DNA of 64,000 nt from Octopus vulgaris. Taxonomy: Eukaryota. Positions within the stretch are counted from its first letter, which is position 1; every line of letters begins with the position of its first letter. The notes beneath the pieces were generated by a model. It had not been told where the DNA came from. It was given only the letters and a program-made list of their open reading frames with translations, and searched no databases. The translations under genes were made by a program, and so were the position numbers. Positions 955 through 60,439 of the stretch are shown here, piece by piece. The stretch covers positions 34,038,001-34,102,000 of the forward strand of contig OX597823.1 in assembly GCA_951406725.2 (NCBI GenBank). Direction: 5' to 3'.

Positions 955-3672
955 ATTATTTAATAACAATTTGACTCAGCTCCATACAAATTACACAGGT
1001 GTGTAGGACAAACTTAACTCATCAAGCATCTGGAAACAGAGTAATTGAATGAGACAAGTCCAAGACAACTTCTAGATGTCAGATGTCTATTGGTCTGGAA
1101 ACAACATCAGTAATTTATTTTATTTTTTTGTCCTTTGACCCACTTGGATGAACAGGCTGTAGATAGATAACTGTCACTGCTCTGTCTGGAAGCTGCAATG
1201 TGGTATATTTAGCAACATCAGATTATTGCCTTTGCTGCTAAACTTTCCATGGGAGCAACAAGATTTGGTGGTATTGGATTGTGATTTGATGATGTTTGAT
1301 TAGACTATCAGCATGAATGGGGCTCTAGTCTATAAGTGTGCCAGGGTTTAACTACTGTGCCATTGAGTACAGAGTGGCCAGGCTTAAAGTGGTATATCTG
1401 GGTTGTTGGCTGCCAGTGTCTTGAAGTTCATAAACAGAGTGTAGCCCTGGAGACAACACAAAGCCAGGTGACTCTTCCTGTTCATGGTTACTGCAGATTA
1501 GTGAAATAGGTGGAGACAGAGTTGATAATTGCAAGTTCCAAGTGAGTACAGAGGAGCCCTGTCAATGACACTCCATTCAATATTGGAAGTCATTCTGATG
1601 ATCACAGAATCGCCAGATAAAATAGGACAGGGACACAGAGTTTTCCTTATCTCTGCTTCTGACAGAGTGCATATGCTGTGTATACCTTTTCTTGAAGTCA
1701 CAGGCTGTTGTGCTGTCTTGTAATGCCAACAGATGGTGTGAGGGTGGGTCTAAAGACCACAGACTTTGTGAGGCAAAATCTTCCCTGTGAACAATTGGTA
1801 AGATTTCAACAGTTACATGTTAGGATGTGTACTGGATGCTGTGTAGGTGTGTGTTTGTGTTTGCTGTAGTATGCACTGTTTAAAGCAACGTTGTCTTAGC
1901 AGAAATAACTGACCTTGATATTATCAGGTTTAAAACCCTTATAATACTTATGGGTTCTAGGGAAATGTTTGTTAATTAGCATCAGGAAGCTCCTAGCTAT
2001 GTTGGTTAAAATTTCTAGGTTAAATGAAGAATTGAATCTCATTACCTTTCTCTTTTTGATTCTCTTTGGATTCAGGAGTGGGGATGGGGTGTCTGTCATA
2101 TATCCTAATGCATTGTTATAATGTGAAGGAGTGGCTATGTTGAAGAACTCTTTATCCATCTATAGTTTAGAGGTTGTGCTGCTTATGCTTGTGACTAAGT
2201 TTCTAATTATAGCTTGGAGGTGGTTAGAGTTGTTGTAGATATATACAGTTTCCTCTTTGGGTTTCCTGCAAGGTCAGTGCTTTCTGATCTTCAGATCCAG
2301 GGTTATGTCCAGGAAGTCAACCCTTGTTAAATTGGTGGTGACCATTAGACAGGCCAAATTATTTGAATATCTTTATCAGACCCTTCTTGAACTTGTCCAT
2401 GATGTGACTGTTTATATGGCTTGAGATTACCAGATTGTCATCCCCTATACAGGCCCAAGTCAGTGGGGCTGCTTCTTTACAGTATCCAGAATAAATAAGC
2501 TGATGAGGTCAACAATTGTAGTCCTGTCGTGGCTCACCATAGCTATGTCAAACAGAGGTTCATCTTTCTTCTTCACCCAGTAGGAATCATGACAAACCAA
2601 AATTGACTTTCTAGCAGTCATGATGTTTCTGATATTAAGGTCACTGATATTGGTGAATTGCTTACCAAATTCTAAAGCTCTCAAGATTTTGGTGGGTAGA
2701 AATCCATGATATTGAACTGGTGGACCTGCAGGCTACTTTCTTCTTGATGCCATGGAACCAGTCAATTCCTGCAGTGCTACAATCTCATTGGGTCAATTTC
2801 ATAGTGCCTTTTTCACTCTTCCATGGATTTAATCAGCCTGCATTTAGGATTAGAAAGGAAGTTGGGTTTATGATCCTTAAGTGTGACATAGGAGGTGGGG
2901 GGAGAGGCAAGGCAGCCCACATGATCCTCTATATTTAGAAAGGTGGCCAGCTCTTTCACTTCAATGCTCATGTCATTATATGTAGAGATGTTTGTTTTCT
3001 TGTTGGTTGCAGTAATTGCGTTTGTAAGAAGGTGTGTGTGTGTGTTTGCAAGTGTTTGTCTCATATATGACCTTTGTTTTGTTGCAAGAATGTGTACATA
3101 AGATGATTGCTTCATTATTGCCATGTAGTAGTGTAATGAGTTAAAGAAGAGGTTAGACTGATGATGTTGATGAAACTTTACCTTCTTTCTGATGTTTAGT
3201 AAATCAGCTTTAAAGCTCTTGAGGTCCTTTAGCTGGGGATATCATTTATTTTTAGGATTTAAAACTGAACTTGTCCATAAGTCTGCTGGCGGACAGATTC
3301 TCAAAGAAAATAGAAAGTGTCACCAAACATATTTTTGGATATTTTTTTAAAGAGTACAACAACAATTGTCTCTCCATTATAAACTGTTTATTTCTCATTT
3401 ATGAGTGGTACTCAACAGAATATAGAGTACGAATACATGTGAGTGGACAAAAATGAAAGAAAGTGACACTCAACACTTTTGTTAGAAATTACATACAATA
3501 TTTAATAACAGTTTGACTCAGCTCCATGCAACTTCAAGTTTCATAGGCTGGTAGAATGAACCTAACTCATCAGGTATCTGGAGATATGATACAAATCCAA
3601 GATGGCTTCTAGATGTTAGGCCTTAAGTGGTTTGTTGAGGTTATGTGGTGTTATTGGTCTGGAAGCAACATC
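955..3672 (-). mobile_element. Decayed near-full-length Penelope-like retroelement with direct pLTRs
   Basis: Minus-strand RT fragments (TLKDHKPNFLSNPKCRLI; FDIAMVSHD; frameshifted LGLYR-DD near 2440-2460; KRKVMRFNSSF..LINKHFP..IKVSY) and GIY-YIG-region fragments (CNC..CLTKSVVF; FKKRYTQH; IEWSVIDRAPLY..C..CL). Flanked by diverged direct repeats at ~955-1108 and ~3497-3672. Confidence 0.8.
3523..3582 (-). ncRNA. Type I hammerhead ribozyme motif in pLTR (partly decayed)
   Basis: Minus strand: tccagatac CUGAUGA GU UAGG..CCUA U GAAA CUUGAAGUU gcaugga. A more decayed copy lies in the other pLTR at ~981-1035. Confidence 0.65.
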
Positions 3673-4156
3673 GATGATTTTCTTTGTTCTTAGAACCACA
3701 TAAATAGAATACCAAACTTCCATCAAGACCTGTTGAGCCTTGGAGAAATATTAGCTTTGAAAAAACTGATAAAGGCATCCAACTATAAAAAATCTGCCTC
3801 AAATGAATTCCATCTGGCCACAATATATATGGACATTAAAACAATGATGATGGTCTCCATTTTGTTTAAGGATTTTGTACAGTAAAAACCAGGCAGTTAG
3901 CCTGAGCATGTCAAGGTTATACAACGGTTCAATTTGATTACATATTTTAGTTGGTTACAAGTTTTACTAAAATATGTGAGTTATTTATTGGAACATGAAG
4001 TAATTCTAGATGAATCAACAACTCAATAATATTTTAATGTTTTAATGACCAATTATTTTTATTATGCATAACAAAGGTTTATTGTGTTGAACAGTTTGTT
4101 GACCGGGGTGGTGTTGACAGTTTTATTACCTGCTTATATATATATATATATATATA

Positions 4157-4340
4157 GTTGAAATTTACAGTAAAACAAAAGACAAAGACAAATATATGAA
4201 CAACAAGCAGGTGTATTAGTTTGATGTTCGGGAAAGTGAGAAAGTCTTTTATGTTTCAAGCCTACACACTTCAACAGAAAGGAATAAGAGAAAATAAACA
4301 GAGAGAGAGAATACAAAAACTTGTAGATTTAGTGGTCAAG
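4157..4340 (-). mobile_element. Short HHR-bearing repeat (CUGUNGA family), decayed
   Basis: Similar to 18838-19012 and 54610-54812. Minus strand 4246-4281 reads cuuu CUGUUGA A GUGU GUAG GCUU GAAAC AUA aaag. Flanked by (TA)n. Confidence 0.6.
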
Positions 4341-58870: not shown

Positions 58871-59149
58871 ATGGATATATGAACTGCTTATGATATAAAT
58901 ATATATACATACATACATATACACACACACACACACACACACACATATATATATATAGAGAGAGAGAGAGATACTACTTTTCAAATTTATATAGTTAAGT
59001 TTTCATATACATGCATACATACGTACAAACATATATATATATATACTTGTATGTATGTATTTACATGTGTGTATACGTGTGTGTGTGTGTGTGTTTAAAA
59101 TGTACTACTTGTATGTATGTTACTGATTTTGCTAATTATCTGTTTCCAG

Positions 59150-59236
59150 AGCTGTACTTGAAAACCATCATGTCTCCCTAGCATTTTCAGTGACTTGCAA
59201 GGATGATTCAGTAAACATCTTCAAGAACTTATCTCA
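59150..59236 (+). CDS. PDE8: PDE8-like coding exon (catalytic domain, ENHH motif)
   Basis: ttccag|A GCT...CA|gtaagt; 87 nt, phase 2/2. Encodes (L)AVLENHHVSLAFSVTCKDDSVNIFKNLS. Confidence 0.95.
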
Positions 59237-60439
59237 GTAAGTTGACACATTCTCTCTGATTGATCTCTGCTTATCTGTCTGTCAATCTGTCTCTCTGTCT
59301 GTTGGTCAATCCATCTGTCTATCTATCTCCTTACCTATCTATTTATCTAATCTATCTATTTATCTACCTGTCTTACAGTCTATTTCTAAGTCTATCTATC
59401 AATATATTTGTACGCCTATCTGTATGCCTATATATCTGTCTGTCACTCTATCTGCTTATCTCTCTACCTACCTTTCCACATACATATCTTTCAATATATC
59501 TATCAGTCTATCTTTCTATCAATCTATCTACTCTAATCTTTCTAATTATCTGAAATATGCAAAACCAGAAACTTTAACAATTGCAAACATCTCTGTACGT
59601 TACATATCATTACTTTTGGTATGCCAAAGCTAATGATATAGCATCGTATGAATGCAGAAGATTCTGGAAAATCATGTTCCAAACTTTGGTTTATAGATAA
59701 GTAAAATAACAAGCTGAATGAAGGGTACTGTCAAATTCCAGCACCTCATTTTTCAAATTCTAGCAGAGGGAAGCGACACAGAACAAATTCGGCATTTAAA
59801 TGATCCCAGTTGTACAACTGAGGACAACTGTATAGCAAATTCTTTTTATGTAGGTTCCTTATAATCCCAAAAGATTATAAAGCAAGATAAAACACTTGAG
59901 ATGTACAGTTAATTCTGTCACTTAAAATCTAAAGGAGTGAAAGTGTTGTGCATGTTTGGTTTTGAATGTATTTTCAGTACAACTTATATAGGTTGTTTTG
60001 ATACCATCTGCTCTGTACAACTTTTTGTAAGGGTGGTACGTGCCTGTAGTCAAGTCTAACTTAAATTTAATGAATATAAGAGTTGATTACACGTTCAGTG
60101 TAGTAGTTAAACTTAAGATTGTGAGTTCAATTCTTGGGCCAGTGACTCTCTATGTACACTAGTTCAAGCATACAAGACAATGGTATCACAAGTAGAATAG
60201 TAGAATAATAACCAATAGAAGAATATCCTTGCACGGACAATGGAATGAGAACAGCCTACTCTGTGGATTTAATTAAGTGTATCACTTAAATTCCAAGACT
60301 GCTGTGTAATACAACAGACACCTGAAGAACACTGGGGAGATACCAGCTGAAACATGACTTAAGAACTAAGATGGGGACACTAATTCGAATATATTTGTGT
60401 ATACTACCACCACAAATAATAATATATACATGTGTATGA

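Follow-up and report, generated by a model that had tools for sequence, protein, structure and literature searches.

Hammerhead motifs in the introns of a PDE8B-like gene

The 64,000-nucleotide (nt) stretch of Octopus vulgaris DNA analyzed here (contig OX597823.1, positions 34,038,001 to 34,102,000; hereafter the window) lies within a PDE8B-like phosphodiesterase (PDE) gene on the plus strand, and carries a series of motifs resembling the hammerhead ribozyme of Penelope-like elements (PLEs). The exon-encoded peptide is a 100% match to an 831-amino-acid (aa) PDE8B-like protein, of which residues 240-679 map to 11 coding exons between 6254 and 62325 (+). The gene runs past both ends of the window, with more catalytic-domain exons downstream. 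An earlier note, made from the sequence alone, had named PDE8 as the host gene, and this was borne out.

6254-6400, 13238-13327, 20496-20591, 22118-22195, 24530-24697, 29179-29223 (+): PDE8B-like exons, the first six of the 11 mapped, by protein match
~33056-33199, 47378-47575, ~49261-49385, 59151-59237, 62188-62325 (+): PDE8B-like exons, the last five of the 11 mapped, by protein match

Hammerhead-like sequence was found by site-by-site reading at all 17 places named in the earlier note, with core starts up to about 70 nt from the coordinates given there. All of these sites lie between the mapped exons, other than the three at 981, 3523 and 4246, which are upstream of the exon for residue 240 and presumably also intronic. 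The count of about 16-17 motifs holds, since 16 of the 17 belong to hammerhead-bearing repeat families; these sites fall into seven families seeded by scoring hammerheads (58773 was placed through its identity to 58706/39055), in agreement with the claim of at least six. Two sense motifs that had gone unreported, 31518 and 19749, add two more families. The description of the sites as type I hammerheads stands as far as the presence of the sequence goes, whereas their intactness had been overstated: a strictly canonical core with all stems is present at only one of the 17, 44113(+). Four others combine intact stems with a family-typical core variant (9350- and 11891+ with C9; 18693- and 54683+ with U6), six keep the core letters with decayed or truncated stems (3573-, 4277-, 18449-, 39059+, 58773+ and 60322+), and four have a broken core (981-, 18884+, 43998- and 58762-). 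The remaining two are a half motif (8270) and an unsupported site, 22786(-), which we rejected as a hammerhead; it has C at position 8, scores below 21 and has no homologue in the window or in a 400-kb genome sample. The 17 copies counted in the window with homologues (see below) divide into nine sense and eight antisense. The features are as follows, with the position given in the earlier note in parentheses.

950..3691 (-): likely decayed whole PLE; direct repeats 950-1127 and 3492-3691, 71-80% identical, with a hammerhead relic in each, around broken reverse transcriptase (RT)-like frames
970..1034 (-): relic (981); GAAA reads GTAA, stem III lost; broken
3530..3573 (-): antisense relic (3523) with an intact core but decayed stems I and II; score 26.2
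4250..4277 (-): family B relic (4246); U6 core, stem II mismatched, stem III palindrome lost
8243..8285 (+): hammerhead 3' half (8270) at an inversion junction; 5' core missing
9190..12051 (+): young 5'-truncated family D PLE insertion; 363-aa RT thumb and GIY-YIG frame at 10275-11366; 1,087-bp inverted arms, 99% complementary
9317..9350 (-): family D hammerhead (9312); C9; antisense twin
11891..11924 (+): family D hammerhead (11885); C9; sense; the inverted arm upstream is predicted to mask it
18384..18449 (-): relic (18377); core intact, loop II long, stems weak; score 27.8
18667..18693 (-): family B/C hammerhead (18663); U6 core, ACGU stem III, stems intact; antisense
18869..18936 (+): family B relic (18884); G5 and A15.1 changed; broken
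19749..19781 (+): previously unreported relic; core intact, stems partly decayed; score 25.4
22786..22823 (-): unsupported site (22786); C at position 8; score under 21
31518..31548 (+): previously unreported family E hammerhead; U3-A8 core, 6-bp stem II, AAUU stem III, 3-bp stem I; no full twin found
39059..39110 (+): relic (39055); core intact, G10.1-C11.1 pair lost
43880..44240: inverted pair of family A elements; predicted ~170-bp pre-mRNA hairpin
43963..43998 (-): family A twin (43958); G8 changed to A; antisense
44113..44148 (+): family A hammerhead (44108); fully canonical; ACGU stem III; predicted to be masked
54683..54710 (+): family B hammerhead (54678); U6 core, ACGU stem III, stems intact; sense, no twin
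58710..58762 (-): relic (58706); G12 changed to A; antisense
58773..58813 (+): relic (58773); starts at an inversion junction, own 5' stem I strand missing
60322..60358 (+): old relic of family A (60317); the core letters survive, with stems II and III decayed; score 16.7

The minimal PLE core (C3-U4-G5-A6-N7-G8-A9, G12-A13-A14-A15.1 and U16.1-H17) is exact with all stems in 44113, and is present in its U3-A8 form in 31518. Families A, B, C, D and E have an extra 5' nucleotide, a stem I of 3-5 bp and a stem II with G10.1-C11.1, the sequence of stem II differing each time. Stem III is a very short palindrome, ACGU in families A, B and C and AAUU in family E, while that of family D reads AGAACU with a central A-A mismatch.

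Because a MAFFT alignment across families put their cores out of register, we scored the motifs with a hand-made graded score instead of a covariance model; values below about 21 are mostly noise. The score was devised after the U6 and C9 variants of the window were known, and its bias, if any, favors the window. At scores of at least 25, the window holds 11 motifs, whereas 20 local dinucleotide shuffles averaged 0.3, a result far from the similar count in shuffled sequence that the earlier note had said would speak against the motifs. A plain descriptor allowing at most one core change found seven motifs against 0.33 in 30 local shuffles, and with no core change it found two (44113 and 31518) against 0.03. 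The Rfam hammerhead models, also proposed in that note, gave no match in the window at the gathering score, and no hammerhead was among the 150 of 159 matches at E<=1 that were listed. At the gathering score, Rfam also misses seven canonical-looking hammerhead copies in a tandem array at another locus, L041, and therefore we judge it blind to this type of hammerhead.

Chance matches in AT-rich, repeat-rich DNA would account for the low end of the scan, where at scores of at least 13 the window has 391 hits against 374 in shuffles, and site 22786 as well as two seed families were judged spurious. As an account of the motifs themselves chance is next to impossible, given the excess at high scores, the pairing of stem II in every family through a different sequence and the confinement of free variation in family B to N7 and H17 (see below); it is refuted for 16 of the 17 sites. 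The motifs are genuine hammerhead-like sequence.

Repeat families, core variants and genome-wide load

The motifs come from at least nine repeat families, all of which are, judged from their sequences, likely fragments of PLE terminal repeats. Two families, D and B, run into RT/GIY-YIG reading frames. The family D motifs of the window (9350 and 11891) lie inside the inverted arms that flank the 363-aa frame, and a whole family D copy at locus L147 has the motif in both of its 1,359-nt direct repeats (at 1136 and 5724), the first lying a short distance upstream of a 1,309-aa frame in which YVDD and GIY-YIG motifs are visible. The nearest atlas clusters of this frame carry RVT_1, GIY-YIG and HTH_animal (0.96-0.97), and a Pfam scan of the family D frame returned no matches; we identify it from the visible motifs, one database name and the atlas clusters. 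The 113 scored genomic copies of the frame encode 98-100% identical protein in open frames of 363 to 1,312 aa, and family D is a very young PLE family. Several of its copies have whole frames of about 1,310 aa, and the protein contains a long Asn/Ser-rich low-complexity insert (L147:1271-5200). The PLE hallmarks observed are thus a single open reading frame with RT and C-terminal GIY-YIG (family D), a hammerhead in both direct repeats (L147), 5' truncation and inverted copies.

Family B comprises 4277, 18884 and 54683 together with the related 18693, and its copies are mostly stubs of about 210 nt. A longer copy at locus L101 has a GIY-YIG frame upstream of the motif and has 1,250 nt in common with the independent locus L094. 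On the ribozyme strand of this family (e.g. 54620-54690), the core is preceded by a long pyrimidine tract, which in the A7 subfamily ends in UAG and so resembles a 3' splice site; an intron end may lie beside the hammerhead in PLE terminal repeats (PMC4209133). Family A (43998, 44113 and 60322) was observed only as stubs of about 180 nt, in nine loci. Families A and E and the smaller ones were assigned to PLEs by motif type, inverted pairs and microsatellite flanks. The PLE origin proposed in the earlier note is therefore traced to reading frames for families D and B, with the palindromic stem III seen as described, and is likely, by motif type, for families A and E. Relics 981 and 3573, which lie in direct repeats around broken RT-like frames, are likely what remains of a decayed whole PLE; we take these frames to be RT-like by motif likeness, their atlas matches (0.95-0.96) being unnamed or DUF8422.

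Tandem head-to-tail hammerhead units of 150-450 nt were not found among the motifs of the window. Such an array is present at L041:2271-4763 (contig C1:20.002-20.005 Mb), where 359-nt units, 98% alike and each with a canonical-core hammerhead, are repeated 5.6 times and accompanied by two inverted copies. This locus is likely a retrozyme of the non-LTR kind (LTR, long terminal repeat).

With stems I and II of family B fixed and 15 places of the core and stem III left free, 19,000 matches were obtained in the genome. Among the first 100, counted by hand, the conserved positions are C3 (100), U4 (97), G5 (97), G8 (97), A9 (100), G12 (92), A13 (100), A14 (99), A15.1 (97), C15.2 (88), G16.2 (88) and U16.1 (99). 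Position 6 is U in 94 (A in 2, C in 3, G in 1), N7 is distributed as U43/C23/A18/G16 and H17 as A78/U20/C1/G1. Apart from CpG decay, free variation is thus seen only at N7 and H17, the positions that a hammerhead leaves free, and this pattern suggests that the source elements, in which U6 was fixed, were selected for the fold. In family D, position 9 is C in most of the first 100 matches and A in three. A natural A6C hammerhead variant is slow (PMC3088659). Literature searches for hammerhead A6U and A9C returned one twister paper and none, respectively, a weak result since notation varies. The U6 core, present in about 94% of a 19,000-copy family, and the C9 core of a young family may serve as natural tests of the core variation that a dimeric hammerhead tolerates.

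Exact patterns of four families matched the genome 24,924 times (B 16,332; A 2,829; D 3,403; E 2,360), and the reversed controls gave 0. The genome sample, forty 10-kb stretches (400 kb) at round coordinates on contigs 1-16, contained 49 motifs scoring at least 25 (seven of them in one tandem array) against one in the shuffle, that is 7.8 per 64 kb compared with 11 in the window. Scaled to 2.8 Gb, the load would be 2.9-3.4 x 10^5 motifs (Poisson range 2.1-4.5 x 10^5), an estimate drawn from 400 kb and a hand-made score, or about one motif per 6-8 kb. A load of 2-4.5 x 10^5 exceeds the published per-genome counts compared here (~2,000-9,000 minimal motifs; ~120,000 axolotl retrozymes). Our literature search found no published hammerhead count for a cephalopod; a 2026 repeat annotation of the octopus reports 31 recently active PLE families, and the words hammerhead and ribozyme are absent from its main text (PMC13282606).

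For genes, we used 358 kb from 11 others, delimited by colinear Pfam exon matches of myosin and PDE genes with long gaps taken as introns. Raw counts with homologues were 21 in the window, 90 in the genome sample (0-9 per 10 kb) and 60 in the gene bodies. Seed families 38 and 34 were discarded as hammerhead families, as their other copies have no core, and 50 rows were dropped with them (41 and 9). This left 17 in the window, 69 in the sample (11.0 per 64 kb) and 35 in the gene bodies (6.3 per 64 kb). At about 1.5 times the genome sample (17 vs 11.0 per 64 kb, Poisson P=0.06) and 2.7 times the other gene bodies, the window is rich for a gene, yet within the range of the genome, and the ribozyme-saturated introns of the earlier note were not borne out.

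Predicted masking, strand balance and the probable fate of the intronic copies

An inverted twin lies within 4 kb of 29 of the 82 motifs scoring at least 25 (84 minus two spurious seeds), and it is upstream in the motif's own sense in 29 of 29 cases (both pair members counted; seven from one array). In the first 100 matches of family D, each of the 20 opposite-strand neighbors within 5 kb has the minus copy ahead of the plus copy, and in a looser homology set this order prevails 23 to 2. The upstream place of the twin would follow from the order of inverted PLE insertions, inverted truncated copies being a known PLE feature (PMC8557442).

The region 43850-44270 is predicted to form a single hairpin of ~170 bp (-253 kcal/mol, z=-33), in which holding 44113 in the ribozyme fold would cost 62.9 kcal/mol, compared with 1.2 kcal/mol for the motif alone; its antisense twin is upstream and hence transcribed first. 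A duplex of 11891 with the upstream inverted arm is predicted at -200 kcal/mol over 111 nt, 58773 and the 58762 copy are predicted to form a hairpin (-97 kcal/mol), and 39059 would need a predicted 8.4 kcal/mol to reach the ribozyme fold. Most motifs of the window are thus damaged or predicted to be masked by an inverted twin, and such masking would be a consequence of the inverted PLE layout. The two unmasked sense copies have stem III words that mismatch (ACGU in 54683, AAUU in 31518), with no intact same-family sense partner for them in the window. Octopus RNA shows very high hyper-editing and many long hairpins (PMC5625713), and on these predictions the twin hairpins would more likely be substrates of adenosine-to-inosine (A-to-I) editing than ribozymes. 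The upstream antisense twin would offer a simple geometric reason why intronic copies are tolerated. A-to-I editing is heavy in the octopus, and the resulting hairpins would likely supply it with double-stranded RNA.

If sense copies cut pre-mRNA efficiently, sense depletion would be expected in genes. The comparison of sense and antisense intronic density that the earlier note had proposed gave 17 sense and 18 antisense in the gene bodies and 9:8 in the window, together 26:26 (95% interval of the sense share 0.36-0.64), so that no sense depletion is seen; at scores of at least 25 the split is 19 sense to 16 antisense. A non-hammerhead repeat in the same DNA, seed family 38, stands at 3:19 within genes (P=0.0009), which indicates that the sample is able to show a strong strand bias. 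This repeat lies at 14903-14964 and 25599-25644 in the window and has 39 further copies in the sampled loci.

From these sequence comparisons and folding predictions, we consider it probable, at roughly 85%, that the ~17 motifs, from at least nine families and likely all PLE terminal-repeat fragments, ride along passively, without cutting host RNA at a rate of any consequence. The ribozyme would have served the source PLEs, where selection kept the fold, and the copies would have reached the introns as 5'-truncated stubs and then decayed. A sense copy would need a dimer partner held by a 4-bp helix, and 11891, 44113 and 58773 would each be sequestered by an antisense twin transcribed ahead of them. 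Published work on related ribozymes is consistent with this account. Single minimal hammerheads are reported not to cleave, and dimers and trimers to cleave little (PMC4209133; PMC6765202). The ribozyme of the anole Poseidon PLE is described as cutting only with the element's protein, as dispensable for insertion in vitro and as giving no RNA-seq reads that end at its site (PMC11167929). Slow intronic ribozymes were without effect on splicing (Fong 2009 as cited in PMC10274809).

Several observations weigh against this reading. No PLE protein match was found in the nine family A loci searched, and families A and E and several smaller ones have no link to a reading frame (family E loci were compared at the DNA level only). 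The window is 2.7 times as dense as the other gene bodies (17 vs 6.3 per 64 kb; P=3e-4 in a Poisson model that takes no account of clustering between genes), and with seeds from gene bodies only it has 12 motifs where 6.1 would be expected (P=0.02). Compared with the genome sample, gene bodies have a lower motif density on both strands (P=0.006; with the tandem array counted once, P=0.026), and some selection against intronic copies, irrespective of strand, is possible. The unmasked sense copies 31518 and 54683 reach the predicted ribozyme fold at 1-5 kcal/mol (about 4 for 54683). Before families 38 and 34 were dropped, gene bodies held 22 sense and 38 antisense copies (P=0.05), and the sense copies were more often intact (P=0.03). 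The antisense bias we attribute to these two families, which are repeats whose remaining copies have no hammerhead core; a mild bias may nevertheless be compatible with 26:26.

The low fold cost and intact stems of 54683 and 31518 are also what would allow these copies to cleave slowly, as homodimers in trans or with the PLE protein or a chaperone, with a small unselected effect on PDE8 pre-mRNA. The ACGU word is common to families A, B and C with thousands of copies each, gene bodies have a lower motif density than the genome sample, and protein-assisted cutting is known for the anole PLE ribozyme (PMC11167929). The 4-bp helices, however, are worth only -1.7 (ACGU) and +2.2 kcal/mol (AAUU), and the ACGU helix by itself would be less than 0.02% paired at 10 micromolar (core stacking not included). 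In addition, 54683 has U6, and the related A6C change is slow (PMC3088659); sense copies are not depleted in gene bodies; and the slow intronic ribozymes studied earlier left splicing unaffected (Fong 2009 as cited in PMC10274809). We therefore regard slow cleavage as unlikely. A bolder form of the idea, which strikes us as distinctly improbable, is that octopus pre-mRNAs hold ~10^5 minimal hammerheads with the common ACGU word, that unmasked sense copies, the U6 variant included, cut introns at a low but real rate through trans partners or active Penelope protein, and that the inverted-twin layout acts as an antisense lock that makes the load tolerable.

The earlier note had gone further and proposed that 44113 and 54683 (its 44108 and 54678) dimerize in cis across families and cut PDE8 introns co-transcriptionally. 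The two copies do share the sense strand and an ACGU stem III, which upholds the compatibility of the two stems to that extent; the AACGUU given for 44113 takes in A14 and U17. They lie 10.5 kb apart in different introns (33200-47377 and 49386-59150), however, with two exons between them, and their common helix is just 4 bp, at -1.7 kcal/mol. Moreover, 44113 is predicted to be locked in the ~170-bp hairpin, the other strand of which is made first, with 62.9 kcal/mol needed to free it, and transcription comes to the 3' splice site of its intron 3.3 kb further on. With no loss of sense copies either, the heterodimer is unsupported and, on these predictions, very unlikely. Co-option of the cluster by the host to tune PDE8 output would have a precedent in the CPEB3 intronic ribozyme (PMC10274809), and the window is denser than other gene bodies. 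But the best copies match dispersed family members at 98-99% identity and are hence recent insertions, the strands are nearly equal (nine and eight) with most copies decaying, and these are thousands of near-identical copies, not a single copy, the intact ones without a monomeric stem III; we give co-option hardly any credence. For the PDE8B-like gene, the motifs are probably of no consequence, being transposon debris of a described kind, and what remains of interest is the load across the genome, the variant cores and the predicted masking by upstream twins.

Surroundings and comparison with known systems

Other features of the locus include a 165-nt inverted repeat (20222-20386 and 30752-30916, 94% complementary), whose arms are 10.4 kb apart and span four exons; in principle it could favor exon skipping or circularization. 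Intronic minisatellites are present at 6322-7236 (41-nt units) and 27311-27728 (19-nt units), and frames of 229 and 74 aa at 40426-41349 resemble a broken Tc1/mariner transposase in their motifs. Elsewhere in the genome, contig C24:27,901,384-28,847,146 has 13 matches to PDEase_I, located in long open frames (about 480-1,170 aa); 11 of the 13 cover the whole domain without introns, and 12 lie within about 130 kb. These phosphodiesterase genes form a tandem array and are intronless, where PDEs at other places in the genome are rich in introns.

The layout found at the window sites, namely the core, one extra base, a G-C-closed stem II, GAAA and a short palindromic stem III, is that of the minimal type I hammerheads in the pseudo-long terminal repeats (pLTRs) of metazoan PLEs (Cervera and de la Pena 2014, PMC4209133). 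The octopus differs in number, with an estimated 2-4.5 x 10^5 motifs against the about 2,000-9,000 per genome given there (the descriptors differ and the figures are not strictly comparable), and in that U6 and C9 cores dominate whole families, which a fixed CUGANGA descriptor would miss. Endonuclease-containing (EN+) PLEs have inverted 5'-truncated pLTR units (Craig et al. 2021, PMC8557442), similar to the inverted truncated copy beside the element and the AT-rich or microsatellite flanks seen here; in the available excerpts of that article, we found no mention of an antisense mask ahead of each sense ribozyme in a read-through transcript.

The non-LTR retrozymes are likewise type I hammerheads in animal repeats with a link to PLEs (PMC7229834; bioRxiv 10.64898/2026.07.22.740005), but they form head-to-tail arrays of 150-450 nt in which neighbors serve as dimer partners, as at L041 and nowhere in the window. 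Reported counts reach about 120,000 copies in axolotl, with 5,000-6,000 for mussel and coral (PMC7229834), and in Xenopus retrozymes mildly avoid introns (bioRxiv 10.64898/2026.07.22.740005). The CPEB3 ribozyme, of the HDV-like kind (HDV, hepatitis delta virus), and the conserved intronic hammerheads of amniotes resemble the present case in placing a ribozyme motif on the sense strand of an intron, yet these are single-copy, conserved and active as monomers, whereas the octopus copies are recent repeats that need a partner. The motifs of the window are thus further members of the PLE hammerhead type already described, at a roughly genome-typical density.

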